From an uncultured Peptostreptococcaceae bacterium (GTDB lineage Bacteria; Bacillota; Clostridia; Peptostreptococcales; Peptostreptococcaceae), in contig CALODI010000010.1 of the NCBI GenBank assembly GCA_942492135.1, positions 96,400-120,399 of the forward strand: a DNA stretch of 24,000 nucleotides, in the 5' to 3' direction. Numbering within the stretch: position 1 is the stretch's first letter; every line of letters starts with the position of its first letter. The translations under genes were made by a program, and so were the position numbers. A model generated the notes under the pieces. It ran no database searches. It saw nothing but the letters and a program-made list of their open reading frames with translations, and was not told the DNA's origin. Positions 142-19,437 of this stretch are shown here, one piece after another.

Positions 142-266
142 ATCCGAAAGCTAAAAGTTCTAAAATTCGATCTGTAGGAAGAATGGAATTAAGAACTTAA
201 CAGCTTCTGGATTAGTGCAACTATAAATTCAGTTGGAATAAAAACTCCATCTGAATTAAGTTTTAC
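142..266 (+). promoter_or_regulatory. structured 5' leader with two hairpins, the second terminator-like (possible attenuator)
   Basis: Hairpin 1: atccgaaagctaaaagttct (142-161) pairs imperfectly with agaacttaacagcttctggat (192-212). Hairpin 2: aattcagttgga (226-237) pairs with tccatctgaatt (246-257) at 11 of 12 bp, followed by aagttttacttc. Confidence 0.3.
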
Positions 267-292
267 TTCATAAATATAGAGGGGTTGAAATT

Positions 293-1405
293 ATGAGTGA
301 AAATCTGTTTAGAAAAGAAGTAGCTTCTATAAAACCGTATATACCTGGAAAGTCTGTAGATGAATTAAAGAAGGAATTAGGTCTTGAAGATATTGAAAAG
401 CTCGCATCTAATGAAAATCCATTAGGTCCATCGCCTAAGGCTATCGAGGAAATAAAAAAAGAATTAGATAGTATACATATATACCCAGATCCTAACTGTA
501 CTAAGTTAAAAGATGGATTATGTGAAAAGTATAATCTAGAACATGAAAATATAGTTGTAGGTAATGGGGGAGAAGAACTTTTAAAGATAATAGCTCAAAC
601 TTTTATAAATGAAGGGGATGAGGCTATAATGGCTAATCCTACATTTGGAAAATATGCGAGTGAAGTTCTTTTTATGGGTGGAGTTGCTCACCAAATAGAG
701 CTTAAAGACTATAAACATGATTTTGAGAAATTCGTTCAAAAAATAAATGATAAAACAAAATTAATTTATGTATGTAATCCAAACAATCCAACTGGAAATA
801 TAATGACAAAAGATGATATTGAATATTTAGTAAAGAATACTCCAAAAGATGTAGTTTTAGTATTTGATGAAGCTTATTATGAGTATGCTATAAAGAATGA
901 TACGTATCCAGATTCTTTATCTATATTAAGAACAAGACCAAATACTATTATACTTAGAACATTCTCAAAGGTTGCAGGAATTGCATCTGTAAGAGTTGGG
1001 TATTTACTTACATCAAGTGAAATAGCAAGTGCTATGAATAAGATGAAGATGGTATTTCATGTTAATAGATTAGCTCAAGCTGCAGGAATAGGAGCTTTAG
1101 ATGATTCTGAGCATATAGACAAAACTGTAAAGCTTAACTATGAATGTATAGATATGATGGAAAAATACTTTGAAGAGAATGAAATGGAATATATAAAGTC
1201 TAATTCAAACTTTGTATTTGTAAATGTTGGACTTGATTCAAAGTTAGTATTTGAAGAATTACTTAAAAAAGGAATAATAGTAAGACCAGGATATCTTTGG
1301 GATTGGAAAGACTGGTTAAGAGTAAGTACAGGAACTAAAGAGCAAATTCAGAAATTCATAGATGCATTACAAGAAGTATTAAAAGCTAATAAAATACATG
1401 CTTAA
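293..1405 (+). CDS. PLP-dependent class-II aminotransferase, histidinol-phosphate/aromatic aminotransferase family
   Basis: 370-aa ORF with RBS agagggg 8 nt upstream. Family hallmarks: [10 protein letters not shown] near the N-terminus, NPNNPTG, FDEAY, and [16 protein letters not shown] (PLP lysine in SK). It lies 18 nt upstream of iorA, which suggests an arylpyruvate-forming role rather than histidine biosynthesis. Confidence 0.8.
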
Positions 1406-1423
1406 ATAAGGGGGAAATTTATA

Positions 1424-3199
1424 ATGAAAAAACTTATGACAGGTAATGAAGCTATTGCTAGAGGATTTTATGAAGCAGGTGGAAGTATAGCTTGTGCTTA
1501 TCCGGGAACTCCATCTACTGAGGTACTTGAAAATGTAGCTTTATATAAAGATATATATTCTGAATGGGCTCCAAATGAGAAGGTAGCGCTTGAAGTTGCT
1601 ATAGGATCATCTATAGCAGGAGCTAGATCTTTATCTGCTATGAAGCATGTTGGAGTTAACGTTGCAGCAGATCCTCTAATGACTTTTGGTTACACTGGTG
1701 TTAATGGAGGAATGGTATTAGTATCTGCAGATGATCCTGGAATGCATTCATCTCAAAATGAGCAGGACAACAGATATTATGCTAAATTTGCTAAGATTGC
1801 AATGATAGAGCCTAGTGATTCACAAGAGGCAAAGGATTTCATGAAGGATGCTATGGAAATATCAGAAAAATTTGATGTACCTGTTTTATATAGAGTTACA
1901 ACTAGAATATGTCATTCTAAAACTTTAGTTGAATTTGGAGAAAGGGAAGAAGTTGGAATAAAGCCTTATGAGAGAAATACAGCTAAGTTTGTTGCAACTC
2001 CAGGTAATGGTAGAAAGTTACATGTTGTAGTTGAAGATAAATTAAAGAAAATGGAAGAGTTTAGTAATGAAACTCATTTAAATAGAGTAGAGTGGAACGA
2101 TAAAAAGGTGGGAGTTATAACTTCTGGTATATCTTATCAATATGCTAAAGAGGTATTTGGAGATAATGTTTCTTATCTTAAATTAGGATTTACTTATCCA
2201 CTTCCGTTTGAAAAAATAGAAAATTTTGCTAAAGAAGTAGAAACTTTATATGTAATAGAAGAACTTGAGCCATTTATAGAGGAACAATTAAAGGCTAGAG
2301 GAATCGACTGTATAGGAAAAGAAAAAATATCTAATTTAGGAGAGCTGAATCCTGATATAATAGCAAGTTCTCTTTTAGGTACAGAAAGTGAAGTTGCAGC
2401 TGCTGTTGCTGAGCTTCAAGAAGATGTAATAAATAGACCTCCAACATTATGCGCAGGATGTCCACATAGAGGATTCTTCTATACTTTATCTAAGAAAAAA
2501 AATGTAATGATTACAGGAGATATAGGATGCTATACTCTAGGATCAGCAGAACCACTTAATGCAATGGATACATGTATTTGTATGGGAGCATCTATAAGTG
2601 CTGGCCATGGAGCTCAAAAGGCATTTAATTTCCATAATGTAGATAAGAGAGTAGTGAGTGTTATAGGAGATTCAACATTCTTCCATACAGGAATATTAAG
2701 CTTAATAGATGTTGTATATAACAAAGGTAATTCCGTAACTGTAATTTTAGATAATAGAATAACTGGTATGACAGGACACCAACAAAACCCAGGAACAGGA
2801 TATACTTTAATGGGAGAAAAGACTAATCAAATAGATATACCAACTATGTGTAAAGCGATAGGAGTTAAGAATATAACTGTTGTAAATCCACTTGATTTAA
2901 AGGCTAATGAAGAAGCTTTAAACAATGCTCTTGCATGTGATGAACCATCAGTAATAATAACTCAATGGCCTTGTGTTCTTAAAAAATTCTCTCAAGAAGA
3001 TAAAGAGAGATTTGACTGCAAACCTAAGTCTTATGAGGTTAAAGAAGATAAGTGTAAACAGTGTAAGGTATGCTTAAAATCAGGATGTCCAGCAATATCA
3101 TTTGATGAATATGCTAAGATAGATAAAAATATGTGTGTTGGATGTAGTGTATGTGCTCAAGTATGTCCATTTGATGCTATAGAAAAGGTTGGTGAATAA
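1424..3199 (+). CDS. iorA: indolepyruvate:ferredoxin oxidoreductase, alpha subunit (TPP-binding, two C-terminal 4Fe-4S motifs)
   Basis: 591 aa. N-terminal MTGNEAIARG...GYPGTPSTE pyruvate:ferredoxin oxidoreductase-like domain, TPP motif GDIGCYTLG...GDSTFFHTG, and C-terminal CKQCKVCLKSGCP and CVGCSVCAQVCP ferredoxin motifs. Confidence 0.85.
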   Translation: MKKLMTGNEAIARGFYEAGGSIACAYPGTPSTEVLENVALYKDIYSEWAPNEKVALEVAIGSSIAGARSLSAMKHVGVNVAADPLMTFGYTGVNGGMVLVSADDPGMHSSQNEQDNRYYAKFAKIAMIEPSDSQEAKDFMKDAMEISEKFDVPVLYRVTTRICHSKTLVEFGEREEVGIKPYERNTAKFVATPGNGRKLHVVVEDKLKKMEEFSNETHLNRVEWNDKKVGVITSGISYQYAKEVFGDNVSYLKLGFTYPLPFEKIENFAKEVETLYVIEELEPFIEEQLKARGIDCIGKEKISNLGELNPDIIASSLLGTESEVAAAVAELQEDVINRPPTLCAGCPHRGFFYTLSKKKNVMITGDIGCYTLGSAEPLNAMDTCICMGASISAGHGAQKAFNFHNVDKRVVSVIGDSTFFHTGILSLIDVVYNKGNSVTVILDNRITGMTGHQQNPGTGYTLMGEKTNQIDIPTMCKAIGVKNITVVNPLDLKANEEALNNALACDEPSVIITQWPCVLKKFSQEDKERFDCKPKSYEVKEDKCKQCKVCLKSGCPAISFDEYAKIDKNMCVGCSVCAQVCPFDAIEKVGE

Positions 3200-3200
3200 T

Positions 3201-3797
3201 ATGTGTAAGGTAAACAATGTTTTATTAGTAGGAGTTGGAGGACAAGGAATAATACTAGCTTCAAAGGTATTATCAAGTGGATTAATAGACTCAGGCTATG
3301 ATGTTAAAATGTCTGAGGTTCATGGTATGGCTCAAAGAGGTGGAAGTGTTACAACTCAAGTAAGATATGGAGAAAAAGTATATTCACCTATAATAGGAAA
3401 AGGTCAAGCTGATATAATTGTTGCATTTGAAAGAGTAGAGGCTTTAAGATGGTTAGAGTATTTAAAGCCAGGTGGAAAGATTGTAATAAATGATTACGCT
3501 ATTCCATCAGCAACTGTTTTATCAGGAAAAGAAGCATATCCAGAAAATATAATTGAAAAGATAGAAGCTAAGTATGATGATGTATCAGTTATAGATGCAG
3601 CTAACGAAGCTATAGAACTTGGAAATATAAAAGCTCAAAATATAATAATGCTTGGTGGACTTATTAAGTCACTGGGAATTGAAGAAATAGATTGGGATAA
3701 GGCATTAAAAGATAATGTTAAAGAAAAATTCGTAGAGTTAAACATGAAGGCTATTAAAAAAGGTCTTGAAAGTGGATTAAAAGAGAAAGCATTATAG
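3201..3797 (+). CDS. iorB: indolepyruvate:ferredoxin oxidoreductase, beta subunit
   Basis: The track ORF starts at TTG 3189. ATG 3201 (MCKVNNVLLVGVGGQGI...) is preferred because GGTG lies 6 nt upstream. Small gamma-domain-like subunit with GVGGQG and HGMAQRGGSV motifs, placed directly after the iorA stop (3197-3199). Confidence 0.8.
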   Translation: MCKVNNVLLVGVGGQGIILASKVLSSGLIDSGYDVKMSEVHGMAQRGGSVTTQVRYGEKVYSPIIGKGQADIIVAFERVEALRWLEYLKPGGKIVINDYAIPSATVLSGKEAYPENIIEKIEAKYDDVSVIDAANEAIELGNIKAQNIIMLGGLIKSLGIEEIDWDKALKDNVKEKFVELNMKAIKKGLESGLKEKAL

Positions 3798-3810
3798 AAT
3801 TATATATAAA

Positions 3811-3846
3811 TTGTGTGGCTTTATAAAGGTCACACAATTTATTTCT
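3811..3846 (+). terminator. rho-independent terminator or attenuator after iorB
   Basis: ttgtgtg (3811-3817) pairs with cacacaa (3831-3837), followed by tttatttct. Confidence 0.5.
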
Positions 3847-3875
3847 ATACAGACAAAATAGAGAGGGGCTTTTAT

Positions 3876-5198
3876 ATGGCAAGCTTTAATGAGGCAAAAA
3901 CTTGTGATATTTTGGATAAAAGCAAGGTCGACAAAATGATGAAATACAGGTGGATTGTATGGGGAGTACTTGCGTTTGCATATATTATAGTATTTTTTCA
4001 TAGATTAGCACCTGGAGTTGTTAAGGATGATTTGATAAATGAATTTAATATTTCAGGAACTACATTTGCAAATTTAGGAGGTATGTATTTTTACGCTTAT
4101 ATGATAATGCAAATTCCAGCTGGAATGTTAGCAGATTCATTAGGTGCTAGAAAGACTGTATCTATAGGGGTTTTATTATCGGGAATAGGGTCTATTTTAT
4201 TTGGAATGGCTCCTACTATATTTTGGGCATTTGCAGGAAGGTTACTTGTTGGTGTAGGGGTATCTGTTGTATTCGTACCGATACTTAAGATACAGTCTGT
4301 TTGGTTTAAGGAAAGTGAATTTGGTATAATGTCTGGTATTACTTCTTTTGCAGGGAATTTAGGTGGAATAATAGCTCAAACTCCTCTTGCTCTACTTGTT
4401 GCAGCTATAACTTGGAGAAGTTCATTCGTTGTTATGGGTGTTTTTTCTATAATAATAAGTGTACTTTGTTATATGATAGTTAGAAATGATCCTAAAGATA
4501 TGGGATATCCATCTATAGCTGAGATAGAAGGTAAAGGTATAAAGCATGTTAATAAAACTAAGGTGAATATGAAAAAGGCAGTTATACAGGTTATGCTTAA
4601 TCCTGGAACTTGGCCGGGATTCTTTATATTTGCAGGATGTTTTGGTGCATTTGTTTCATTGACTGGAGCATGGGGAAATGGGTATATAACGGATGTATAT
4701 AATGTATCTAAGATACAAGCTTCTAATTATATGATACTTCCTGTTTTAGGACTAGCTATTGGAAGTATATTTATTGGAGTTATTTCTGATAAGATGAGAA
4801 AAAGAAAGACTCCTATGATGATGTTTGGAACTGTTTATTTACTGTGTTGGGCTACTATTGCTTTTGGAGGAAGACTTGATACTAATGTCTTAAAGGTTGT
4901 GTTGTTTACGTTAGGTTTTACTTGTTCTACATTTGTACTTGGATGGGCTTGTGCAAAAGAGGTAAACCAACCAGAAATAGCGGGTATATCAACGTCTATT
5001 GTTAATATAGGAGGGATTTTTGGAGCTGCTATTATGCCATCTATACTTGGAGGAATTTTTGATAAATATGGAGCTACTTTAGTTAGTGTTGACCTTTATG
5101 GTAAGGCATTTATGTATTGCTTTTTGAGTGCTCTTGTAGGGTATGTGTTTGTATTTTTGGTTAAGGAAACTAATTGTAGGAATATATATTCTAAGTGA
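3876..5198 (+). CDS. MFS transporter (12-TM type, anion/organic-acid permease-like)
   Basis: The track ORF begins at GTG 3813, inside the terminator hairpin. ATG 3876 (MASFNEAKT...) has RBS gagagggg at 3861-3868. The sequence is highly hydrophobic with a typical MFS loop motif (GMLADSLGARKT). Confidence 0.8.
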   Translation: MASFNEAKTCDILDKSKVDKMMKYRWIVWGVLAFAYIIVFFHRLAPGVVKDDLINEFNISGTTFANLGGMYFYAYMIMQIPAGMLADSLGARKTVSIGVLLSGIGSILFGMAPTIFWAFAGRLLVGVGVSVVFVPILKIQSVWFKESEFGIMSGITSFAGNLGGIIAQTPLALLVAAITWRSSFVVMGVFSIIISVLCYMIVRNDPKDMGYPSIAEIEGKGIKHVNKTKVNMKKAVIQVMLNPGTWPGFFIFAGCFGAFVSLTGAWGNGYITDVYNVSKIQASNYMILPVLGLAIGSIFIGVISDKMRKRKTPMMMFGTVYLLCWATIAFGGRLDTNVLKVVLFTLGFTCSTFVLGWACAKEVNQPEIAGISTSIVNIGGIFGAAIMPSILGGIFDKYGATLVSVDLYGKAFMYCFLSALVGYVFVFLVKETNCRNIYSK

Positions 5199-5231
5199 TT
5201 TTTTTAAGAAGATTATATGGTGGTTAAGCCC

Positions 5232-5432
5232 AAAATAAGGCTTATTAAAATACCGTGAATGTGTTAAATGTTTTTAATAAAACTAAGTATTACATCTTAT
5301 TGAATATCCTAAAAGTTCTAAACTCCCGTTGGTCAGACAACGAACTTTCTTAACGGATATTCAAAAGATGCAATACAAGTTTTATACAAAAATATTTAAA
5401 TCATTCACTAACATTTTAATAAGCCTTATTTT
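5232..5432 (+). repeat. long-hairpin repeat, copy A (about 200 bp imperfect palindrome followed by a T-run)
   Basis: The left arm aaaataaggcttattaaaataccgtgaatg... is complementary to the right arm ...cattcactaacattttaataagccttatttt over about 70 bp per arm. Apical region: cctaaaagttctaaactcccgttggtcagacaacgaactttcttaacgg. Homologous copies lie at 10688-10883 and 12244-12452. Confidence 0.8.
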
Positions 5433-5524
5433 TTTAGTTAGGTACTTAGATGTTTGTGAATACAGATTGAAATTTACCAACCTCAAATTTGAGAAAAATC
5501 TTTGAAAGTATTGAAAAACAGAGG

Positions 5525-5554
5525 TTTACAAAGGATGTTTTTTAGAGTTATAAT
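5525..5554 (+). promoter_or_regulatory. candidate sigma-A promoter driving the omega-RNA/iscB transcript
   Basis: TTTACA (5525-5530), 18-nt spacer, TATAAT (5549-5554). Confidence 0.45.
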
Positions 5555-5559
5555 TATAT

Positions 5560-5845
5560 GTGAAGAGGCATTCTACTCTCTTTAACTGTAACATGAGATG
5601 TATGTCAATAACCTACCGCTTACAACCTAAAGGTTGTTGAAGTGGGGGCTTGTAAAAGCTCTTATTGTCTAGACTAAGCCTTAATTGGCTACATTAGAAT
5701 AGTTATGATAACTTTGTATGATACCCTAGTACATTTTGTTATCAAGGCTCTGTAAACAGCTTTCATGGGAGGAAGCAGTCAACCTTATGTAAGAAGCTAT
5801 TCTAATATTGTCTAAGGGTAACTACTCTGAAAGGAGGAATACTTT
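5560..5845 (+). ncRNA. candidate omega-RNA (IscB guide/scaffold RNA); boundaries approximate
   Basis: A stretch of about 285 nt with no ORF immediately 5' of iscB, where IscB omega-RNAs are encoded. Nested helices are visible: attagaatag (5692-5701) with ctattctaat (5797-5806); gataac/gttatc hairpin (about 5705-5745); caacc-taaa-ggttg; gctt-gtaa-aagc; ctg-taaa-cag. Confidence 0.5.
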
Positions 5846-7165
5846 ATCTTAGTATTCGTAATCAATAAGAATGGCAATCCTTTAATGCCATGTAAACAAT
5901 CAAAAGCTAGAAAACTATTGAAGCAAAATAAAGCTAAAATAATAAATTATAAACCATTTACCATACAACTTTTATATGGTTGTAGTGGATACAAGCAACC
6001 TATAGAAATAGGAATAGATAGTGGATCTAAATATATAGGAATAGCTATTACAAGTGAAGATAAAGTATTGTCTAAAGGAATTATTCAGCTTAGAACTGAT
6101 GTAAAAGAACTTCTAATTACTCGTAGAATACTTAGGAGAAGTAGAAGGAATCGCAAAACTCGTTATAGAAGATGCAAATTCAAATATAAAACTACTAGAA
6201 AATATAATCCTAAAAAGAAAAAGTGGGTTAAGCATAAGTTTTCTTTTAAAAGTAATCGCATTGAAGAATGGTTACCACCTTCAATACAAAGTCGAATAGA
6301 TAATCAAATACTTTGGATTAATAAGTTTATAAAACTTGTACCTAATCCTAAAGTAATTATTGAGTTAGGCAAATTTGATGTCCAAAAGATAATTAATCCA
6401 AATATTACAGGTGAACAATATCAACAAGGAAAATCCTATGGATTCTACAATTTTAGATATTATGTGTTTGCTAGAGATAATTACAAATGTCAAATTTGTA
6501 AAGGTAAAAGTAAAGATGATATATTACAAACACATCATATAATTCAGCGAAAAGATGGAGGCTCTGATAGAGCTGAAAACTTGGCTACAGTATGTATGAC
6601 TTGCCATTCGGATTTTCATGCTGGCAAGATAAATTATAAATTTAAAAAACCTAAGCAGTATAAAGAAACTACTTTTATGAATATACTTAGAAGGAAAATA
6701 CTCAAAAGACTTGATTGTGATGTTACCTACGGTAATATTACAACATCAAATAGAAAAGCCTTAGAATTGGATAAAACACATTATAATGATGCAATTGCTA
6801 TTAGTGGAATTGTAAATATAAAAGATAATTCTAATGTTATCTTTTATATAAAACAGTTCAGAAAGAAAAAAAGATCTTTGCATGAATCTACTGCTCGAAA
6901 GGGTAGAAAAACAAAGAATACAATTTCTAAAAGAAATGAGAAAAATACTAAATTTTCAAAGGGGTTCTACCTTAATGATAAGGTAAAAGTCTTTAAAAAA
7001 GTAGGGTTTATAAGTGGCTTTTGTAAAGGTGGAGTTTATATAAAAGATATAGAAGGCAACTATATAACAATGTCTGGAAAGAATTATAAACAAGTAAGCT
7101 TTAAAAATATAGAAGTTATAAACCATAATAATAATTGGCAATTTATACAAAGTATAAGTGCATAG
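5846..7165 (+). CDS. iscB: IscB-type RNA-guided nuclease (PLMP, split RuvC with inserted HNH, C-terminal beta-rich domain)
   Basis: Motifs seen: (I)LVFVINKNGNPLMPC...PFTIQL (PLMP domain), GIDSGSKYIG (RuvC-I Asp), RRSRRNRKTRYRR (Arg-rich bridge helix), VIIELGKFD (RuvC-II Glu), CQIC...HHIIQRKDGGSDRAENLATVCMTCHSDFH (HNH) and HYNDAIAI (RuvC-III). The start is set at ATC 5846, 8 nt after AAGGAGG (5831-5837). The first ATG at 5885 would remove the conserved N-terminal strand and has no RBS. Confidence 0.85.
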   Translation: MLVFVINKNGNPLMPCKQSKARKLLKQNKAKIINYKPFTIQLLYGCSGYKQPIEIGIDSGSKYIGIAITSEDKVLSKGIIQLRTDVKELLITRRILRRSRRNRKTRYRRCKFKYKTTRKYNPKKKKWVKHKFSFKSNRIEEWLPPSIQSRIDNQILWINKFIKLVPNPKVIIELGKFDVQKIINPNITGEQYQQGKSYGFYNFRYYVFARDNYKCQICKGKSKDDILQTHHIIQRKDGGSDRAENLATVCMTCHSDFHAGKINYKFKKPKQYKETTFMNILRRKILKRLDCDVTYGNITTSNRKALELDKTHYNDAIAISGIVNIKDNSNVIFYIKQFRKKKRSLHESTARKGRKTKNTISKRNEKNTKFSKGFYLNDKVKVFKKVGFISGFCKGGVYIKDIEGNYITMSGKNYKQVSFKNIEVINHNNNWQFIQSISA

Positions 7166-7233
7166 AAATTCAGCCCACCACCTATTTTATTGAGGCTGGA
7201 GACGTAGTGATAATATAGGCTAACTATTAGAAG

Positions 7234-7259
7234 AAAAGGACTTTTTATAAGTCTTTTTT
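7234..7259 (+). terminator. weak terminator-like hairpin downstream of iscB
   Basis: gactt (7238-7242) pairs with aagtc (7248-7252), flanked by an A-run and a T-run (tctttttt). Confidence 0.3.
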
Positions 7260-7366
7260 GTGTGTGAGGTATTTTGCTGAGCCGATGGGTTGAAAGAAAA
7301 CTTCTCGCCTAAATAATGGGATAATAAGTTATAAGCAAGGACGTTTTTGATGACAAAAGTACCTAA

Positions 7367-7489
7367 AGTAAGCTGATGAAAGGTGTTGGAATGGAACGAG
7401 AGATTATGAGTAAAGGTATTATAATAGTACGTTATGCTGATGATAGTTCGTCACGAAGTAGGAGCCAATCAACTAGAATGGTTGTTTGA
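7367..7489 (+). pseudogene. fragment of a group II intron/retroelement reverse transcriptase (YADD motif region)
   Basis: A short frame reads ...EREIMSKGIIIVRYADDSS... with RYADD at 7430-7444. There is no start or full-length ORF, and the flanks are stop-rich. GTGTG at 7261 resembles a group II 5' end, but this is not compelling. Confidence 0.4.
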
Positions 7490-7834
7490 AGATAGCTATG
7501 CTATACAGATGATGCCTATGGAGGGTATACCACAAAACACAAATAAACCTAAAGAATTAAAGTGAGGTATTAAGGAACATGATAAATAAAAGAAATGTTA
7601 TAGATATAATTTCTAAAGAAACGCAAGGGAAAAGATATAAATCACATAGATATTGTCATGATGTGATAAGCTCTTCTGCAATAGAATATGAAGAAGAGTG
7701 AGAGGTTGTTTGGAAAAAATTGGTGAAACAACTAAACATCAAAAGCCAAGTGTGTTGATTATGAAAAATTTTCTATAAAGATTATCAGCACACAACTTCC
7801 TTATAAATTGAATTAATGATAATTTAGTATATTT

Positions 7835-8212
7835 CTATCGTTTAGATGTTTCTGCATGTGTGAAATACAAAATAATATATGCTATTAATGCAGAAAAAAG
7901 TTGATTATATACAGCGTTTTCACTTGTTCCAAAGAATCTTTTCGCATTTAGATTTTGTTTTATAAATCTAAAAAAAGTCTCCACTTTCCAACGTTCTTTA
8001 TAAATATTGGCAATAGTTTCTTCAACTTGTGATGGTATCGTTTGAGTTACATTTAAAGCTAGATGAAGTTTTATGCCTGATTTTTCCCTCTTAAATTTAG
8101 CCCATTTGATACGGTTTTTTCCTACTGTAACAGTAGTAGAATCAATAGCTAATAAATCTTTAGGAAGATTCAAAGCTCTTTTTGTTGCACGATTACATTT
8201 GTCTGAAAGCAT
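7835..8212 (-). pseudogene. IS4-family (DDE_Tnp_1) transposase remnant, N-terminally truncated and internally deleted
   Basis: The 125-aa ORF contains LAIDSTT (first DDE Asp region) joined almost directly to YKERWKVETFFRFIK, which matches the Y-2-R-3-E-6-K signature. The segment carrying the second Asp is missing. Confidence 0.6.
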
Positions 8213-8232: not shown

Positions 8233-8391
8233 TTTGATGATCTATTGAACAATGATGAAGGTTTTATATTTGGGAAAATAGGTGATAAGTACATCACAAA
8301 ATTACAAACAGAGGACGGTCATATATTAATTATTGGAGGAGCTGGAAGTGGTAAAAGTTCATGTATGGCAATTTTAACTCTCTTAAACTGA
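8233..8391 (+). pseudogene. N-terminal fragment of a VirD4/TraG-like type IV coupling protein (Walker A)
   Basis: The frame reads FDDLLNNDEGFIFGKIGDKYITKLQTEDGHILIIGGAGSGKSSCMAILTLLN then stops. This pattern (GxxxGK, about 15 aa, H-hydrophobic run, G-GSGKS) is typical of conjugative coupling ATPases. Only about 52 codons remain. Confidence 0.45.
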
Positions 8392-8512: not shown

Positions 8513-10591
8513 ATGATTCAAAATATATGTGATAAAAGAAAGTCTTTAATCCTTGTAGTAGATGATTCTAAATTAATTCGATTTACATTTAGGAATTTTT
8601 TAGAGAATGAAGGTTATGAGGTTATTGAGGCTGAAGATGGCATCGCGGCTCTTTCTCTATTTGCAAAACTAAAGCCCGATATCGTTCTAATGGATTATGT
8701 AATGCCAGAGGTAGATGGTGTTACTGCCTGTACTCAATTACAGGAATTACCTAATGGGAAGTCTACTCCTGTAATTATGGTTACCTCTCTTGAAGATGAA
8801 AACTCTGTAAACCTTGCTTTTGAGGCTGGTGCTACTGATTATATTAGTAAGCCAATCAACTGGGCTGTTTTACGCCAACGTCTAAGACGTTTAATACGTG
8901 CAAGACATACAGAGATAATACTTGATCAAAGTGAATCATTTGCGCGTTCTATAATCAACCATGCAATCGAGGGAATTATTACTATCGATATTAATGGAAT
9001 AGTCAGATATATTAATCCTGCAGCTGAACAAATTTTTGGCTATATGCCTAGTGAGATAATAGGAGAAAACATTAATATGATTATTCCAGAACTTTCTTAT
9101 AGAGATTACGATAATTTTGATATTAATGATAAATTTATACATATGACCAAGGAAATAATTGGCCAGCGAAAGGATACCTCCACATTATCTATTGACCTTA
9201 CAGTAAGTAAGTTTTATGTAGAGGAAAAATATTTTTTTACTATTATCCTTCGTGATATTACGGAACAAAAACGTTATGAGGAAATGATCAGGCATCAAGC
9301 TTTTTACGATTCTTTAACCAATCTACCTAATCGACTTTTATTAAAAGAACGTATTGAGCTTGAAATTTCTCGTGCTAAACATACTGGCCAGAAGGTGGCA
9401 GTAATGTTTCTTGATTTAGATAGATTTAAGCTTATTAATGATACCCTTGGACACGATATCGGAGATAAAGTACTGAAAGAAATCGCCAAGAGACTAAAAA
9501 GTTGTGTACGTGAAGACGATATCACTTCTCGGATAGGAGGTGACGAATTTGTAATTTTACTACCTGGAATAACTCATGAAGAAAACGTAGGTAGAATTGC
9601 TAATAAAATCCTTAATACTATCAAGCAACCGTTAATAATTGACAATCACGAACTGTATCTCACTATTAGCATTGGAATTACTATTTGTCCCAATGATGGT
9701 GAAGATGATGAAGTGTTACTGACAAATGCTGACATTGCTATGTATCGGGCTAAAGAAAAGGGTAAAAATAATTTCCAGCTATATACACCATCTTTGAATG
9801 CCAAAGCTCTTGAACGATTAGAACTGGAAAATAGTTTGCGCCGCGCTCTAGAATATAAAGAATTTGTAGTTTATTACCAGCCCAAAGTAAACACTAAAAC
9901 TGAGAAAGTAACTGGAATGGAAGCCTTGATACGCTGGCAACATCCCCAATGGGGGTTAGTTCCTCCACAAAAATTTATTCCTTTAGCTGAAGAAACTGGG
10001 TTGATTGTACCTATTGGCGAATGGGTATTACATACTGCTTGTGCCCAAAATAAAGCCTTACAAAACGCTGGATTCCCTCCTTTGACTGTGGCCGTTAATC
10101 TTTCGGTAAGGCAATTTGAGTTACAAGACTTAACAAAAATGGTCTTAAAGACATTGAAAGAAACTGGGCTAGAACCACAATACTTAGAATTAGAAATTAC
10201 AGAAAGTATAGCTATGCAGAATGTAAAACATACACTGGATACGATTAGTAAATTAAAAGCGATGGGAGTTAAGTTTTCCATAGATGATTTCGGTACTGGA
10301 TATTCTTCTTTAAGTCAATTAAGTAGTTTTTCTGTAAATAAATTGAAAATTGACAAGTCTTTTATAAGTAAGATTACTGAAGAAAAAGGTAATTCAATAA
10401 TTGCTTCAACAGTCTTAGCTTTAGGAAAAAGCCTTGAACTAGGGGTAGTTGCTGAAGGCGTTGAAAATGAAGAACAGGCTGATTTCTGTAAGGAAAATAA
10501 TTGTGACGAAATGCAGGGTTATTTTTTTGGTAAACCTATGTCTAACGAAAATTTTGAGAAGTTTTATTGTCAAAAACTCCAAGAAAGTTAA
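8513..10591 (+). CDS. response-regulator receiver-PAS-GGDEF-EAL protein (c-di-GMP turnover)
   Basis: 692 aa. REC domain (LVVDDS...DIVLMDYVMPEVDG...KP), PAS domain (IINHAIEGIITIDINGIVRYINPAAEQIFGY), GGDEF domain (RIGGDEFVILL, with RxxD-like context), and EAL domain (EALIRW, ELEITES, DDFGTGYSS, KIDKSF, EGVE, QGY). Confidence 0.9.
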   Translation: MIQNICDKRKSLILVVDDSKLIRFTFRNFLENEGYEVIEAEDGIAALSLFAKLKPDIVLMDYVMPEVDGVTACTQLQELPNGKSTPVIMVTSLEDENSVNLAFEAGATDYISKPINWAVLRQRLRRLIRARHTEIILDQSESFARSIINHAIEGIITIDINGIVRYINPAAEQIFGYMPSEIIGENINMIIPELSYRDYDNFDINDKFIHMTKEIIGQRKDTSTLSIDLTVSKFYVEEKYFFTIILRDITEQKRYEEMIRHQAFYDSLTNLPNRLLLKERIELEISRAKHTGQKVAVMFLDLDRFKLINDTLGHDIGDKVLKEIAKRLKSCVREDDITSRIGGDEFVILLPGITHEENVGRIANKILNTIKQPLIIDNHELYLTISIGITICPNDGEDDEVLLTNADIAMYRAKEKGKNNFQLYTPSLNAKALERLELENSLRRALEYKEFVVYYQPKVNTKTEKVTGMEALIRWQHPQWGLVPPQKFIPLAEETGLIVPIGEWVLHTACAQNKALQNAGFPPLTVAVNLSVRQFELQDLTKMVLKTLKETGLEPQYLELEITESIAMQNVKHTLDTISKLKAMGVKFSIDDFGTGYSSLSQLSSFSVNKLKIDKSFISKITEEKGNSIIASTVLALGKSLELGVVAEGVENEEQADFCKENNCDEMQGYFFGKPMSNENFEKFYCQKLQES

Positions 10592-10687
10592 TTACCTAGA
10601 TTTCGTACAAATGTAATTATTTATTCACTATAAAATACCAATTGATTAAATCTCTAATTTGAAAAAACTATAGGTCTTAATCCCAAA

Positions 10688-10883
10688 ACAAATGACATTA
10701 AAATACCGCTAATGTGGTAAATATTTTTAATAAAACTAAGAATTACATCTTATTGAATCTCCTAAAAGTTCTGAACTCCCTCGAGGTCAAACAACGAACT
10801 TTCTTAACGGATATTCAAACGCTGTAATTCAAGTTTTATACAAAAATATTTAAAGCATTCGCTAACATTTTGATGCCATTTGT
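10688..10883 (+). repeat. long-hairpin repeat, copy B (inside the IS1380-like element)
   Basis: Near-colinear with copy A (...attaaaataccgctaatgtgg...tcctaaaagttctgaactccctcgaggtcaaacaacgaactttcttaacggatattcaaa...cattcgctaacattttgatg...), followed by tttgttttttt. Confidence 0.8.
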
Positions 10884-11018
10884 TTTTTTAGCATGTTTCT
10901 TAGATATGAAATGGATTTAAATATATGTTATTTTCAAAAAAGACAAAAAGAAACAAAGGCAATTAATTCATTACCATCATTTGTAATAAACGTTCTGTTT
11001 TATTTCTTATCTAAATTA

Positions 11019-12110
11019 TCATAAATTAAAACTTAATTGCTCATATGAAGGATTACACATTGCGTTAGCAATGAGGTTTGCAAGTTTAGTTATGGTTGGA
11101 ATATCTACAATTATTTCATTTAAAGTACGCTTTACAAATCCTTTTACATTTCCTACTTTTTTTACTAAATCTCCGATACCTACATTTTTTAATGGTGTAT
11201 CTTTTAATAGTGTTTCTTTAAATAAAACAATAAGATTATGAGTTATAAAAACGATCCACAAAAAAGCATAAATCCCATGAAACTTAGTAGTCCTAAGGTT
11301 TCTAATATGATAAACAATTTTAGCCATTTTAAAAAAAGCTTCTATAGTTTTTGCAATGTTTTTTGCTGTTTTAGAAGAATATCCTTTTATAACGAATTTT
11401 AATTTTGATACAGAAGATACCATATCTATTATTTCCTCAGTTCCATATCCGCTATCCGCACGTATAATTAGCTTACTTATTTTTAATTGTTCACTATATT
11501 TTTCTAATGAAGAATTTAAAAGGTCTCTGAATCTATGTGAGCAATGAACATTTCCAGAATCAAGATACATTCCAACTGTCTCGGCATTTTTTCCTGCAAA
11601 TGCTGCTGATAATTGATATCCAGATTGATTCTTTTTCTTTGAAAAGTATCCTTTTGTGCTACCTTCATAAGATTTACCATTTGCAATCAAACCAGATTGA
11701 TCAAAGTCTACGACTATCTGCTCTTGAGAATTAGCCGAAGAACTATGTTCTTTGAAAAGTTCGCTATGAATATCTTCAAGTTGAGATATATTTGTAGAAT
11801 CCATTCGCCTTAAAAGAATATTAATTTGAGATTGATCCGGGAAACTATCCATGTTAAATAAATTTGCTGATAGTTTTTCAGTTCCGAGCTTTTCGTTTAT
11901 ATCTTTCATAAATTCACAGCCCATTACAATTGACATTATTATCGTCATCATCTTTTGATAAACAGAATATTTAACTTTTTTCATTTTTAATTCAAAGTAC
12001 TTAAAAGGCTTGAAAAAGTCAATTTTTAAGCCAAATTTCATTACAGCAATCAACCAAGTGGAAGTAGTCTCCTCTTTACAATTATTCTGTTTAAATGTTA
12101 TTCTTTTCAT
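11019..12110 (-). CDS. IS1380-family DDE transposase, internally shortened (likely non-functional)
   Basis: The start is moved to ATG 12110 (MKRITFKQ), with GGTGG 8 nt upstream. VVDFDQSG...STKGYFSKKKNQSGYQLSAAFAG...LDSGNVHCSHRF...IRADSGYG...KFVIKGYSS parallels the ISEcp1 D, KGYNPKK, RSGN, RMDSGY and YLIKAK blocks (from memory). Roughly 85-95 residues seem missing before the TIEAFFKMAK (E-containing) block. Confidence 0.65.
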   Translation of the reverse strand: MKRITFKQNNCKEETTSTWLIAVMKFGLKIDFFKPFKYFELKMKKVKYSVYQKMMTIIMSIVMGCEFMKDINEKLGTEKLSANLFNMDSFPDQSQINILLRRMDSTNISQLEDIHSELFKEHSSSANSQEQIVVDFDQSGLIANGKSYEGSTKGYFSKKKNQSGYQLSAAFAGKNAETVGMYLDSGNVHCSHRFRDLLNSSLEKYSEQLKISKLIIRADSGYGTEEIIDMVSSVSKLKFVIKGYSSKTAKNIAKTIEAFFKMAKIVYHIRNLRTTKFHGIYAFLWIVFITHNLIVLFKETLLKDTPLKNVGIGDLVKKVGNVKGFVKRTLNEIIVDIPTITKLANLIANAMCNPSYEQLSFNL

Positions 12111-12243
12111 AAATAATACCACCTTTCTTATTCTAGATTTGTTTTTCAAGGCGAATTCTTTTATAATAATATGGTATTATTTTTTTGTCTTTTATTCTAT
12201 GGTAAAAATAGGGGATGAAGTTTTAATTTATAATAGAGTTGCT

Positions 12244-12452
12244 AATATTAAAACTGTCTATACAAATGTTAGTGAATGCTTTTAGATATTTTGACTAATA
12301 TAACTTAGGTTTTATCGTTTAATATTCCGTTAAAAAATTTGAGTGTTTGACCGTAGGGAGTTCTCAAATTTTAGGACTATTAATAAGATAGAATCTTAGT
12401 TATATTCAAAATATCGTTGTATTCACGGTATTTTTATAGATAGTTTTTAATA
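12244..12452 (-). repeat. long-hairpin repeat, copy C (inverted relative to A and B; inside the IS1380-like element)
   Basis: The reverse complement reads ...ataaaaataccgtgaatacaacg...tcctaaaatttgagaactccctacggtcaaacactcaaattttttaacgg...cattcactaacattt.... It is more diverged, but arm complementarity is kept. Confidence 0.7.
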
Positions 12453-12550
12453 ACCCAAAGACCCTAAAAAAATAACCCAGATTTCGTTTGTACGAAATCT
12501 AGGTAATTAAGATATTTATAATAATATTTTTATCTAACCTCAAGAATTTT

Positions 12551-15041: not shown

Positions 15042-17765
15042 ATGGATGATAGTAAAAAAATGAAACTTGCTGATATTTTGGCATCTAAAGGATTGTCAAT
15101 TAATTATCAGTATGGAGGAAGAGCTCCAGAGGAGATGGTTGATAGAGAAGTCAAAAAAGAACCAACTCCAAGAGCTAAGAGGTTAAGAGATATATTCTAT
15201 AATACATTATCAACTGCTAATATGGAGTTTCCTTATTGGTACAACCGTAAGTTTAATGAGCTTGAAGGCGAGATTACAGTAGTTAGAAGAGCTCTTGCTT
15301 TAAAAGAGGCATTTTCAAGACTTACACCAAATATTGTTCCTGGTGAAAAGTTAGTTATGCAAAAAACTTATAACTATAGGGGATCTTTTCCTATGCCATG
15401 GCTTTCCGAAAGCTTCTTCGTAGCCAAAGAAAGTGAACTATACAAAGCTGCTCTTGAATCAGGAAGTGCAAGTGCTGGCGAGTTAAGTGAATTCGGACAT
15501 GGTGGAGGAAATGTTACAAAGAGTTTTGGAAATGTAGTTTCTATTGCTGGTAAGTTTGGAATGAGAAAAGAAGAAATTCCTGTTCTTTTAAAAGTTGCTA
15601 ATGAGTGGGTAGGAAGATCGGTTGAGGATTTAGGACATAAATACGAAAAGATGGTTCCAGATTACGAGGTTAAAGAAAATATAATGAGAAGCTTAGTTTG
15701 TATGTTTGACTCAGGATTTACTCTACCTCAAGGAAGAGAAGTAATAAACTATTATTATCCTCTTCAATATGGATTTGACAAAATTATAGAAATGGCTAAG
15801 GAATGTAAAGATGAGGTTGCTGGAAATGCAGATGGAGATGGAGTAGCAGGAATGGACAGACTTTATTTCTATGATGCTGTAATTCATATTATAGATGGTC
15901 TTCAAACTTGGATATTAAACTACGCAAAACATGCAAGAAGACTTGAAAAAATAGCTAAGAATGAAGCAGATAAAAAAGAGTATATGGATATAGCTGACTG
16001 CTTAGAAAACATAGCTCATAAACAGCCATCTACATTCAGAGAAGCACTTCAATTATCATACATCCTACATATTGCAGTTTTAAATGAAGATGCAATATCT
16101 GGATTATCAATAGGAAGATTAGGTCAAGTACTATATCCTTGGTATGAGCAAGAGATTGAGGCAGGAAAGATAACTAAGGAAGAAGTATTAGAACTTTTAG
16201 AATTATATAGAATAAAAATTACATGTATAGACTGTTTTGCATCAACAGGAGTTGTTGGAGGCGTTTTATCAGGAAACACATTTAATAACTTAAGTCTTGG
16301 AGGACTTACTCATGATGGACAGTCTGCTACTAATGACTTAGAAATGTTAATTGTTGAAGCTGGTATAACATGTGGAACACCTCAGCCTACTTTATCAGTT
16401 CTTTATGATGAGAAACTTCCAGAAAAGTTCTTATTAAAATGTGTAGAATGTGATAAAACTGGTGCAGGATATCCAGCATGGATGAACAATAGAGGTGGAA
16501 TAGAATTCATGATGAATCAATATTCACCTGAGGGAATGACTATTGAAGAAGCTAGATCATTTGCAATAGGAGGATGTCTTGAAACATCACCAGGATGTTG
16601 GAAGGATCTTAAGTTAAATGGTAAGAAATATAAAATACCTGGAGGAGCAGGTCAACCTACAAGCGTTGGAGTTCACTTTGTAGCAAATCCTAAGGTATTA
16701 GAGTTAGTACTTACTAATGGAGTAGATAAAAGAACAGGAATCAAAGTATTTGAGCCTCATAATAGAAAGCTTGAAACTTATGAAGAACTAGTTGATACAT
16801 TCAAGATGTATTATGAAAAAGCAGTTGACGTTTTAGCTAAAACTAACAATGTACAACATGATATATGGCGTAAGCAGAATATGTCTGTTGTAAACTCTTT
16901 CTTAAAACCAGATTGTTTAGCTAAAGGACAGCATATAGGTAATATGGGATATAGATATAATGCTACATTTAACGTTGAAAGCTGCGGAACTGTAACTATG
17001 GTAAACTCATTAGCTGGAATCAAAAAAGTTGTATACGATGATAAGAAGTTTACTCTTGAAGAATTAACGGATGCTATGACAAACAACTTTGGATTTAAAA
17101 ATGCTCTTGAAACAAGAAATTTCTCGATGATGGATCAAGAAAAAATAGATAATAGTGGTAAATACGATGATATATATGGAGAATGTTTAATGGCTCCTAA
17201 GTATGGTAATGACAATTCTTATGCAGATAATATACTTAAGGGATATGAAGATTGGTTCTGTGAAATGTCAAAGACTGCAATGTCACTTTATGCAAAACCT
17301 ATGTATGCTTGTCAAATATCAGTTTCAACTCATGGAGCACAAGGTGCTGCAACACTTGCTACACCTGATGGAAGACTTGCAGGAACAACATATTCAGATG
17401 GTTCAATGTCTGCTTATCCTGGAACTGATAAGAATGGACCATATGCTTTATTTGAATCAGCTACAGTTTGGGATCATTCAAATTCTCAAAACTCTCAGAT
17501 GAACATGAAGATTCATCCAAGTGCATTAAGAGGAGAGCAAGGAACTAAGCATTTATTAGATTTAACACGCTCATATATGAGAAAAGGTGGATTCCACATA
17601 CAATACAATATTGTAGACTCTAAGATATTAAAAGATGCACAAGAAAATCCTGATAGCTACAGAGATCTTATGGTAAGGGTTGCAGGGTTTACACAATACT
17701 GGTGTGAAATAGGTAAGCCTATTCAAGATGAAGTTATTTCAAGAACAGAATATGAAGGAGTGTAG
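15042..17765 (+). CDS. hpdB: 4-hydroxyphenylacetate decarboxylase, glycyl-radical (large) subunit
   Basis: 907 aa with RBS aaggggg. Glycyl-radical motif RVAGFTQYW (Gly882) and thiyl loop GGCLE (Cys512, Glu514). Ser353, His545 and Glu646 align at a uniform +9 offset with the residues recalled for the C. scatologenes enzyme (S344, C503, E505, H536, E637, G873). It is followed by a small Fe-S subunit gene. Confidence 0.85.
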
Positions 17766-17769
17766 AGAT

Positions 17770-18027
17770 ATGTTAAAACACAATGATTGTTTAAATTTTT
17801 CACCTATGGATGCTGCAAAGGGAATTTGTAGAGTTACAGGAAACGTAGTTAATATAGATTCTGATGTATGTGAAGCATTTGATCTGTGTCCTAAATGTAG
17901 AAATTGCTCTCACTTTAAAAACTCTGATAAAGATGAACTAGGAATGTGCACAGGTCTTGATAAAGATAACTGGACGTATGGAGATTTAAATGCTATAACA
18001 TGTAATGAACATGAGTTGGAAAAATAA
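17770..18027 (+). CDS. hpdC: 4-hydroxyphenylacetate decarboxylase small (gamma) subunit, Cys/His-rich Fe-S protein
   Basis: The track ORF starts at 17728 inside hpdB. ATG 17770 (MLKHNDCLNF...) lies 10 nt after GAAGGAG and 4 nt after the hpdB stop. It encodes 85 aa with an H-x2-C...C...C and CPKCRNC...C...C pattern. Confidence 0.8.
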   Translation: MLKHNDCLNFSPMDAAKGICRVTGNVVNIDSDVCEAFDLCPKCRNCSHFKNSDKDELGMCTGLDKDNWTYGDLNAITCNEHELEK

Positions 18028-18059
18028 TATAGCAACTAATTTGGAAGGATTGATATGGA

Positions 18060-19337
18060 ATGCTAGAGAACAGAGTAAGTGAAAAGGAAGCAAAACACCT
18101 AGGTTATATGGTAGTGCTTGCATCTTGGCTTGCAGTATTTTGTTTATTTGGTTATAGAGCTACTTTTTCTGTACTTCAAGGACCTATGGCAAAGGATCTG
18201 GGATGGAGTGCATCTAAATTAACTCTAGGTTATTCACTTATGATGAGCGTTTATGCAGTAACTGCATTCTTTAGTGGAATGATAATAGATAAATGGGGAA
18301 CTAAGCCTGCTTATTTTTTAGGTGCTTTAAGTGGTTCCTTAGGATTTCTGGTAACAAGCTTTGCCAAAACATATATGTCTTATTTGATTCCATATGCTGT
18401 ATTTGCAGGGATTGGAACTGGTATGCTTTGGGTATCGTCAACTGTATCGGTTAGAAAATGGTATGTAGGTAAGTCATATGCAACTATGTGGGGTATAGCT
18501 TTTATGGGAGCTCCTGTTGCACAGGTTGTACTAAGTCTTGGAGCTAAACAGGTTCTTGCAACTATGGACTGGAGATTTGCTATGAGAATATTATCTCTTG
18601 TAGTATTAATCGCTTTAATAATAGCTACTTGTGTTGCTAAGAAAAATCCTCAATACTATGGGCTTAAGCCTTTTGGTATGGACACAGTAAAAACTAAGAA
18701 AAATAATGTGAATGATAGAGAATGGAGTATAAAACAGGCATTTTCTACATTCCCTATATGGGGTGCTATAATAGCATTCTTGACTAGTATGGTTGCAGAG
18801 TTTTTAGTTTGGACTCAAATTGTAAAGTATTGGATGGCGGATTGTGATTTATCTTTATCTACAGCTACCAATCTTTATGTAGCAATAGGAATAGCTGGAA
18901 TACTTACAATGCCTTTAATGGGAGTTGTAGCAGATAAGATGGTTACAAAGTTAAACCATGAAACAAAGGGTAGAAAATATATGCTAATATTCGCGCCTTT
19001 AATGGGAGTTATAGCTTGTATTGCTTTGATGACAGGAAAAGGTGCAGTAACTCTTAGTATAGTATCTTGTATAATATTTGCTGTATACTGGGCTATCGAA
19101 CCTGGTGGAGTTGCAGGATATGCAGCATCTGTTTATGGAAATAAGACTTTCGGTAAGATATGGGGACTATCAACTCTTGTAGTTATGGGTATAGGACCAG
19201 CACTTGGAAGTTTTATGGGAGCTTATTTATATGACGTATCTGGAAGTTATTATAATTCACTAAAGTTTGCCATGGCATCATTCGCAGTATCTGCTATAGT
19301 GGCGATGCTTCTTCCATTATCTATAGATAAGGATTAA
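18060..19337 (+). CDS. MFS transporter embedded in the hpd operon (oxalate/formate-antiporter-like in general appearance)
   Basis: 425 aa, about 12 TM helices, with RBS ggaagga 10 nt upstream. It sits between hpdC and hpdA. Confidence 0.8.
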   Translation: MLENRVSEKEAKHLGYMVVLASWLAVFCLFGYRATFSVLQGPMAKDLGWSASKLTLGYSLMMSVYAVTAFFSGMIIDKWGTKPAYFLGALSGSLGFLVTSFAKTYMSYLIPYAVFAGIGTGMLWVSSTVSVRKWYVGKSYATMWGIAFMGAPVAQVVLSLGAKQVLATMDWRFAMRILSLVVLIALIIATCVAKKNPQYYGLKPFGMDTVKTKKNNVNDREWSIKQAFSTFPIWGAIIAFLTSMVAEFLVWTQIVKYWMADCDLSLSTATNLYVAIGIAGILTMPLMGVVADKMVTKLNHETKGRKYMLIFAPLMGVIACIALMTGKGAVTLSIVSCIIFAVYWAIEPGGVAGYAASVYGNKTFGKIWGLSTLVVMGIGPALGSFMGAYLYDVSGSYYNSLKFAMASFAVSAIVAMLLPLSIDKD

Positions 19338-19361
19338 AGTTAAACTAATTCAGAAACTATT

Positions 19362-19403
19362 AAGTTCTTATCTCCAGCCTTAAGAGGAAGGAGATAAGAA
19401 CTT
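19362..19403 (+). promoter_or_regulatory. 14-bp perfect hairpin between the MFS gene and hpdA (partial terminator, processing or stability element)
   Basis: aagttcttatctcc (19362-19375) pairs with ggagataagaactt (19390-19403) around a 14-nt loop. The tail ttagctttctg is only a weak U-tract. Confidence 0.5.
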
Positions 19404-19437
19404 TTAGCTTTCTGATAAATGAAATGAGGGATTTGAA

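Follow-up and report, generated by a model that had tools for sequence, protein, structure and literature searches.

An IscB and omega-RNA locus in a Clostridia genome, with ATC at the conserved start position of iscB

Coding sequence and omega-RNA of the locus

We analyzed a 24,000-nucleotide (nt) stretch of DNA from an uncultured Peptostreptococcaceae bacterium (contig CALODI010000010.1 of GenBank assembly GCA_942492135.1, positions 96,400 to 120,399 of the forward strand; hereafter, the window), which carries a gene of the IscB family of RNA-guided nucleases and, directly upstream of it, the matching omega-RNA. The iscB coding sequence occupies 5846..7165 on the plus strand and comprises 439 codons counting from ATC 5846, which is residue 1 in the numbering used here. 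It lies in an open frame that runs from 5831, after an in-frame TGA (5828-5830), to the stop codon TAG at 7163-7165. This amounts to 445 stop-free codons in DNA of 27% GC, while the remaining five frames across 5831-7165 contain 13-76 stops each.

The encoded protein matched the Pfam family RRXRR (PF14239) over the entire profile (8.4e-55, positions 1-174/174) and HNH (PF01844, 1.3e-10) C-terminal to it, and reached 324.5 bits against the NCBIfam equivalog NF040563, 'RNA-guided endonuclease IscB', whose cutoff is 175. In a phmmer search of the sequences in the Protein Data Bank (PDB), the best matches were all IscB (TbaIscB, 5.8e-37; OgeuIscB, 2.6e-32), with the alignment ending near residue ~350 of the window protein. 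Further, an AlphaFold2 model built with 47 homologues, with a mean predicted local distance difference test (pLDDT) value of 75.7, was compared with the PDB by means of Foldseek. Here, the top 10 matches were IscB/IsrB structures (E 1.7e-23 to 2.5e-12), and small Cas9s came next. The C-terminus was beta-rich in the model (strands 378-427), and the whole-chain matches to IscB had a template modeling (TM) score of about 0.5.

The domain order along 5846..7165 (plus strand) is PLMP, RuvC-I (D58), an Arg-rich bridge helix, RuvC-II (E173), HNH (H231, CxxC...CxxC), RuvC-III (H312, D315) and a putative C-terminal WED/TI-like beta domain. For OgeuIscB, Kato et al. reported RuvC residues D61, E193, H340 and D343, HNH residue H247 and the PLMP motif at positions 14-17 (PMC9640706). 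The residues of the split RuvC in the window protein (D58, E173, H312 and D315) align with these four in the same order, and H231 of the HNH, which is inserted between RuvC-II and RuvC-III, aligns with H247; the CxxC...CxxC and N245 positions of the HNH are also conserved. At the N-terminus, VFVINKNGNPLMPC aligns to OgeuIscB residues 3-17, with P12-L13-M14-P15 corresponding to the motif at 14-17 and the RRXRR profile covered from its position 1; the PLMP domain is encoded solely if translation begins at ATC 5846. The bridge helix, RRILRRSRRNRKTRYRR, lies inside the RRXRR match and has invariant R97, R101 and R108. Model confidence was low in this segment (pLDDT <50, residues 85-110), as expected without RNA.

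The PLMP, RuvC and HNH catalytic residues were invariant across the 47-sequence alignment. Among 46 homologues, 154 columns had a conservation of at least 90%; the window protein departed from these at five, which equals the family median, and beyond the start position the rest of the coding sequence showed no relaxation of constraint. These results agree with an earlier note on this DNA, which had recognized the gene as iscB, had listed its motifs, had taken its catalytic residues, which proved to be at canonical positions, to be intact and had described an uninterrupted open reading frame (ORF). They also agree with its proposal that an omega-RNA should lie in the ORF-free region upstream, as described in the following.

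An Rfam scan of the whole window returned one match only, to HEARO (RF02033), the IscB omega-RNA, at 5604-5825 on the plus strand (98.8 bits with a gathering score of 83, E 1.7e-19). The match to this covariance model is full length (positions 1-211/211), stops 20 nt short of the iscB start position on the same strand and scores within the range of the relatives' HEARO matches (84-132 bits). In an RNAalifold analysis of nine omega-RNAs, including those of relatives, compensatory double changes were found at 29 of 44 consensus pairs, and the minimum free energy fold of the single sequence regained the long main helices. The scaffold was placed at 5604..5845 (plus strand), that is, the HEARO match at 5604-5825 plus a tail reaching the start codon. 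In comparison with the Rfam model, some helices of the window copy stand in a different register, and the model does not include the terminal hairpin at the 3' end, with which the Shine-Dalgarno sequence overlaps. Decay of the omega-RNA, considered on account of non-canonical pairs in the cmscan alignment, was rejected, as the helices are well-formed in the different register and identical in the Clostridium botulinum relative.

The guide of an IscB omega-RNA is the 5'-adjacent DNA outside the element, HEARO being bounded by the right end (RE) of the transposon (PMC10055086). With the position taken from this study and from PMC9640706, the predicted guide is GTAACATGAGATGTAT (5588..5603, plus strand), flanking DNA directly 5' of the scaffold and outside the transposon end, for which a length of 16 nt is presumed. 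It had no second match within the window or the fetched loci. Judged from its sequence, the locus is a genuine IscB/omega-RNA (OMEGA) module of the usual non-autonomous kind, a fresh member of a well-known family.

As a separate observation, the 3' end of the omega-RNA forms a hairpin, CUCU-GAAA-GGAG (5825-5836), whose 3' arm is the Shine-Dalgarno sequence of iscB (GGAG). Relatives show this arrangement as well (CTCTGAAAGGAG, CTCTAAAAGGAG and CTTCGAAAGGAG). A Shine-Dalgarno sequence held in a hairpin, together with the TTG or GTG starts of most relatives, hints that IscB translation is generally low or coupled to RNA folding or binding.

Host promoter, insertion site and element ends

At the 90% level, the flanking major facilitator superfamily (MFS) transporter clusters with proteins of Tepidibacter mesophilus and T. 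hydrothermalis; with a protein of a Tepidibacter metagenome-assembled genome (MAG) it shares 88% identity. On the basis of this clustering and identity, the host is assigned to Tepidibacter (Clostridia), in keeping with the Clostridia-like chromosome recognized before. We compared the locus with three sister genomes, those of T. hydrothermalis, T. mesophilus and the Tepidibacter MAG (loci L034, L035 and, for the MAG, L030). The aminotransferase-iorA-iorB-MFS block was kept in all of them, and in none was IscB found downstream of the MFS gene. With regard to the earlier question of whether the locus is fixed or mobile, it was thus absent at the syntenic site in 3/3 sister genomes.

Blastn and pairwise alignment matched window positions 241-5567 to L030 6366-11647 (88.7%) and window positions ~7488-7747 to L030 ~11782-12043. 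The insertion block in between (5568..7487, plus strand) measures 1.9 kb, in place of ~134 nt in L030, and consists of the IscB element and ~260 nt of other debris. When this 'empty' segment of L030 was aligned to the window flanks, the result was no better than that of shuffled controls. No matches were obtained when metagenomes were scanned with a 24-mer of the left flank plus guide and with a 31-mer of the right flank. Each of the genomes compared has a different interval between the MFS gene and the hpd cluster, a region that is variable and littered with insertion sequences (ISs).

A sigma-70-type promoter, TTTACA-18-TATAAT, is located at 5525..5554 on the plus strand. It agrees with the consensus at 11/12 positions, was the best site of the scan and has a predicted transcription start near 5561. 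While the earlier note was right about a near-consensus promoter at this place, its view of the promoter as a part of the system did not hold. The same sequence is kept in the sister MAG (L030, 11605-11634), there ahead of a 158-amino acid (aa) host gene; to judge by this conservation, the promoter is therefore pre-existing host DNA outside the element, which landed ~50 nt behind it. Transcription of an IscB omega-RNA must start outside the IS because the guide is DNA outside the element, and Meers et al. infer landing behind outside promoters from a bias in iscB orientation (PMC10055086). The promoter at 5525-5554 is the likely source of an omega-RNA/iscB transcript.

The original client of this promoter is the host gene just mentioned, of which the window retains a remnant of 40 codons (7579-7701, plus strand; intact, 158 aa, at L030 11874-12350). 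The remnant is truncated by a fragment of an IS4-type DDE transposase (7835-8212, minus strand; PF01609, C-terminal part only).

The limits of the element were estimated with the help of Halolactibacillus miurensis, which carries three IscB copies (L003, L004 and L006). Identity among these copies begins exactly at HEARO nucleotide 1 (GTCAAT...), upstream of which the 5' flanks are unrelated, and extends to ~43 nt beyond the stop, where the copies read ...ACTTCTTGCCTAAGTTCGTTRAA. From this we infer that the left (RE) boundary of the window element is at 5604. Its 3' end, the left end (LE) side in the canonical IS605 orientation, probably lies at 7166..7223 (plus strand) and has hairpin arms CAGCC/GGCTG, followed by GGAGAC and ...ATATAGGCTAA. 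Positions 7167-7223 align with the post-stop ends of L001, L007, L022 and L003, for which the consensus is a hairpin plus ACTTCTTGC, N and GTTAAA.

A right end at ~7312 was rejected as the primary one, since 7167-7223 aligns better and is contiguous after the stop codon. The sequence at 7277-7312 (CTGAGCCGATGGGTTGAAAGAAAACTTCTCGCCTAA) is itself similar to the consensus for the 3' ends of IscB elements (a hairpin followed by ACTTCTTGCCTAA), with a score of 32 compared to a shuffle maximum of 27, and may be a second, solo end that dates from a previous insertion of IscB there.

Start position and competing readings of the locus

At the position where its relatives start, window iscB has the codon ATC (5846-5848), and the frame is free of ATG, GTG and TTG before 5885. 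The ATC is preceded by the Shine-Dalgarno sequence GGAGG (5833-5837) and an 8-nt spacer (together 5833..5848, plus strand). The corresponding codon in relatives is ATG (L001 and L022), TTG (L002-L004, L006, L007, L010 and L026-L029) or GTG (L005); around the start, L001 reads GAATACTTTATGTTAGTATTCGTA, compared to GAATACTTTATCTTAGTATTCGTA in the window. The first canonical in-frame ATG (5885..5887, plus strand) is the M of PLMP and is without an upstream Shine-Dalgarno sequence. Homologues begin 13 codons before it (MLVFV.NK.GE.LMPC), and RRXRR is matched from 11 residues ahead of it. Initiation at 5885 would leave the protein without its first strand and without the 'PL' of PLMP. Hence, of the two starts named before, 5846 and 5885, the former is ATC, and the latter is the sole canonical in-frame start but falls inside the PLMP domain.

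ATC is a permitted but very weak initiator in bacteria. Because of this start codon, full-length IscB is probably made at a very low level, if at all. A protein initiated at 5885 would probably be defective, because RRXRR begins 11 residues earlier and mutations of the PLMP motif lower cleavage by IscB (PMC9640706). The locus is either very weakly expressed or a very recent casualty, and we consider the chances that it still yields active nuclease to be even. The earlier description of the locus as apparently intact holds for the catalytic residues and the RNA; it was overstated as to the conserved start position.

We propose that the IscB module is, with high probability, an ordinary non-autonomous element of the IS200/IS605 family (OMEGA) that inserted in one Tepidibacter lineage behind a host promoter. 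The steps of this explanation are modeled on characterized members of the family. The element, of ~1.6 kb (~5604-7223), would comprise only the omega-RNA scaffold (HEARO), iscB and a short hairpin-bearing far end, and would have inserted ~50 nt behind the host promoter, in the intergenic region between the MFS transporter gene and the hpd cluster. Transcription from 5525-5554 would enter the element, so that the 5' part of the transcript (~16 nt of flanking DNA, 5588-5603) could act as guide and the next ~220-240 nt as the scaffold bound by IscB, with iscB carried on the same transcript. The complex is expected to cut guide-matched double-stranded DNA beside a target-adjacent motif (TAM), one strand by RuvC (D58, E173, H312 and D315) and the other by HNH (H231). 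Its natural target would be the 'donor joint' left after excision by a TnpA supplied in trans, where cleavage would force the element to be copied back (homing).

Several observations weigh against this explanation. The ATC start was seen in none of about 9 independent relatives examined. The protein forms a singleton cluster, with its nearest relative just 68% identical among 3,709 homologues at E < 1e-20. The terminal motif is GCTAAC in the window compared to GTTAAA in relatives, and the right boundary could be narrowed down only to about 20 nt (~7205-7225). The TAM is a motif beside LE that is common to TnpA and IscB (PMC10055086). Mobility and homing would be impaired if a GTTAAA-like motif is the TAM or cleavage site. 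Sister syntenic sites have diverged, and no clean empty site was found among them. Lastly, in agreement with the earlier note, no Y1 TnpA domain was detected among window ORFs of at least 80 aa, and because of this lack of a Y1_Tnp match the element is at most non-autonomous. tnpA is close to only about 1.5% of iscB genes, ~98.5% of the loci being without it (PMC10055086).

Some of these points would equally fit an early-stage relic, a version nested within the proposed explanation to which we assign somewhat less than an even chance. Here, the locus would be a stranded single-copy IscB insertion that no longer yields active nuclease in useful amounts and has not yet acquired frameshifts or stops, with an ATC that arose by mutation of an ATG or TTG start and a far-end motif that has degenerated. 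The ATC at a conserved start is in line with this, the closest relative at the DNA level having ATG, one base apart, as are the sole canonical ATG, use of which would delete part of a PLMP domain needed for activity, the GCTAAC motif, the decayed mobile-element fragments all around and the singleton status of the protein. On the other hand, the long stop-free frame in AT-rich DNA, the retention of every catalytic residue, substitutions at conserved columns that are no commoner than in other family members and an omega-RNA score inside the relatives' range do not suggest decay. Moreover, a strong Shine-Dalgarno sequence stands at ideal spacing before the ATC, Table 11 permits ATC as initiator, and most relatives already use weak TTG or GTG starts.

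The intact ORF and RNA among decayed neighbors, the strong host promoter and the lack of TnpA in the window could also be read as domestication, which the earlier note had considered possible: a TnpA-less IscB with a fixed guide, retained by the host as a programmable nuclease for a function such as defence or regulation. We regard this as very improbable. The locus sits in a lineage-specific 1.9-kb insertion and is missing from the syntenic site in the three sister Tepidibacter genomes, and is thus not a conserved feature of Tepidibacter. Selfish IscB elements normally have no TnpA and rely on a promoter outside the element (PMC10055086). The guide, like that of mobile copies, simply corresponds to the adjoining DNA and has no match elsewhere in the window or fetched loci, and a start that is weak or non-canonical speaks against expression having been selected for. 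A variant in which the copy, instead of decaying, undergoes taming seems to us just as improbable. Here, a single immobile IscB-omega-RNA unit on a strong host promoter would be retained by the host, with a fixed guide, as a guided nuclease or DNA binder present at a low dose. Were it true, its output would be throttled by the ATC start and by the Shine-Dalgarno sequence buried in the terminal hairpin of the omega-RNA, and it would be the IscB counterpart of domesticated TnpB derivatives. That the protein is a non-guided HNH homing endonuclease or a restriction-type (McrA-like) enzyme merely resembling IscB is effectively refuted, even though homologues go by 'HNH endonuclease' or 'McrA' in some databases and the HNH domain alone also matches group II intron maturases. 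The full-length RRXRR with RuvC-I/II/III residues, an IscB equivalog score far above cutoff and the solved IscB structures as best fold matches speak against it, and domain content together with the adjacent, cognate HEARO RNA rules out both this identity and that of an intron maturase.

Known systems, relatives and neighboring sequences

Among characterized systems, OgeuIscB-omegaRNA (PDB 7UTN/7XHT/8CSZ) and TbaIscB (9K30) share the domain order, with a WED/TI domain that is putative in the window protein, as well as aligned catalytic residues and an upstream omega-RNA with a 5' guide. They differ from the window protein in sharing only ~20-25% identity with it and, for OgeuIscB, in length (496 aa vs. 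439 aa); the C-terminal ~90 aa of the window protein are matched by fold only, outside the phmmer alignment. Both are characterized nucleases, whereas window IscB is a predicted one and has ATC at its start position. A close parallel in architecture is GstIscB in ISGst of Geobacillus stearothermophilus (Meers et al. 2023, PMC10055086), likewise a non-autonomous IS605-family element of HEARO plus iscB, with an omega-RNA bounded by RE, a flank-derived guide, outside transcription, co-orientation with the upstream gene and no tnpA in cis. In contrast with the Gst elements, which are multi-copy and have a known TnpA partner and the TAM TTCAT, one copy is visible in the window, and its TAM, guessed from the ends of relatives, would be GTTAAA-like in the iscB orientation. 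As for the RNA, the full-length match to Rfam HEARO is backed by the compensatory changes among relatives described above.

The closest relatives are a C. botulinum IscB (P0002, 68%), those of Bacillus spp. and the three-copy family of H. miurensis. They share with the window its length class (404-470 aa), omega-RNA type, element architecture and 3' end hairpin, whereas the window protein is a singleton at no more than 68% identity, with ATC in place of ATG/TTG/GTG and a divergent terminal motif. A scan of GTDB species representatives yielded no relative closer than 59% and no Tepidibacter match.

The C. botulinum locus (L022; RWKN01000005.1, 5755-7317) has phage/plasmid-like neighbors (DnaG-type primase/DUF3854, N6/N4 methyltransferase and ProQ-like), and its IscB is labelled 'Paclitaxel/taxanoid biosynthesis susceptibility protein TS1' in one NCBI record, an evident misannotation. 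A further locus, L008, on a contig from an uncultured Methanobrevibacter (CACWUH010000114.1, 3016-4461), encodes a related IscB at 40% identity and matches HEARO in full (93.7 bits). The presence of this IscB on a contig of an archaeal methanogen MAG reflects either cross-domain spread or a binning artefact.

The locus adds one moderately divergent, compact IscB orthologue (439 aa) with cognate omega-RNA and mapped genomic context to a family that NCBI already names routinely, and would be of modest use for cataloguing and for the mining of small genome-editing nucleases. It exemplifies two published points, namely that IscB depends on landing behind a host promoter and is usually without TnpA. 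The ATC start is a small curiosity on the silencing or throttling of such nucleases, and leaves current understanding unchanged.

In the window, the MFS-to-hpd interval holds the IS4 DDE fragment, a P-loop FtsK/T4CP-like (type IV coupling protein) fragment, a motif fragment of a group II intron reverse transcriptase (RT) and an IS1380-like transposase; for these, the decayed state of mobile neighbors reported earlier was borne out. The RT fragment (7403-7447, plus strand) translates to IMSKGIIIVRYADDS and is too short for any Pfam match; it has the YADD motif typical of group II intron RTs, the rest of the RT being missing. The P-loop fragment (8245-8391, plus strand; 48 aa, GGAGSGKSS) gave weak matches to FtsK/SpoIIIE, TrwB and coupling proteins of type IV secretion systems (best E 1.9e-5) and is what is left of an ATPase for conjugation or DNA translocation.

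An intergenic repeat of ~230 nt is present at 5224-5451, 10677-10905 and 12259-12298, as two direct copies (84-87% identity) and one partial inverted copy. Inverted repeats of 30 nt (93%; 10588-10617 / 12481-12510) flank the gene of the IS1380-like transposase (11019-12149, minus strand). Sister genomes have the ~230-nt copy just past the MFS gene in the corresponding position, and this copy thus looks like an old solo end or a miniature inverted-repeat transposable element of the IS1380-like element.

Further downstream, 15042-20367 (plus strand) contains a glycyl-radical cluster of the 4-hydroxyphenylacetate decarboxylase type, which is conserved in T. mesophilus. It encodes a PFL-like/Gly_radical large subunit (907 aa), a small gamma subunit (4HPAD_g_N plus HPIP_like), an MFS transporter and a radical S-adenosylmethionine (radical-SAM) activase, and this gene content suggests p-cresol-type chemistry in the source Tepidibacter.

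Finally, the sister MAG has a TnpB (OrfB_IS605 plus Cas12f1-like_TNB) ~7.5 kb past the MFS gene (L030 18892-20160 / L031 10038-11306); therefore, IS605-family guided nucleases circulate in the genus even without IscB.

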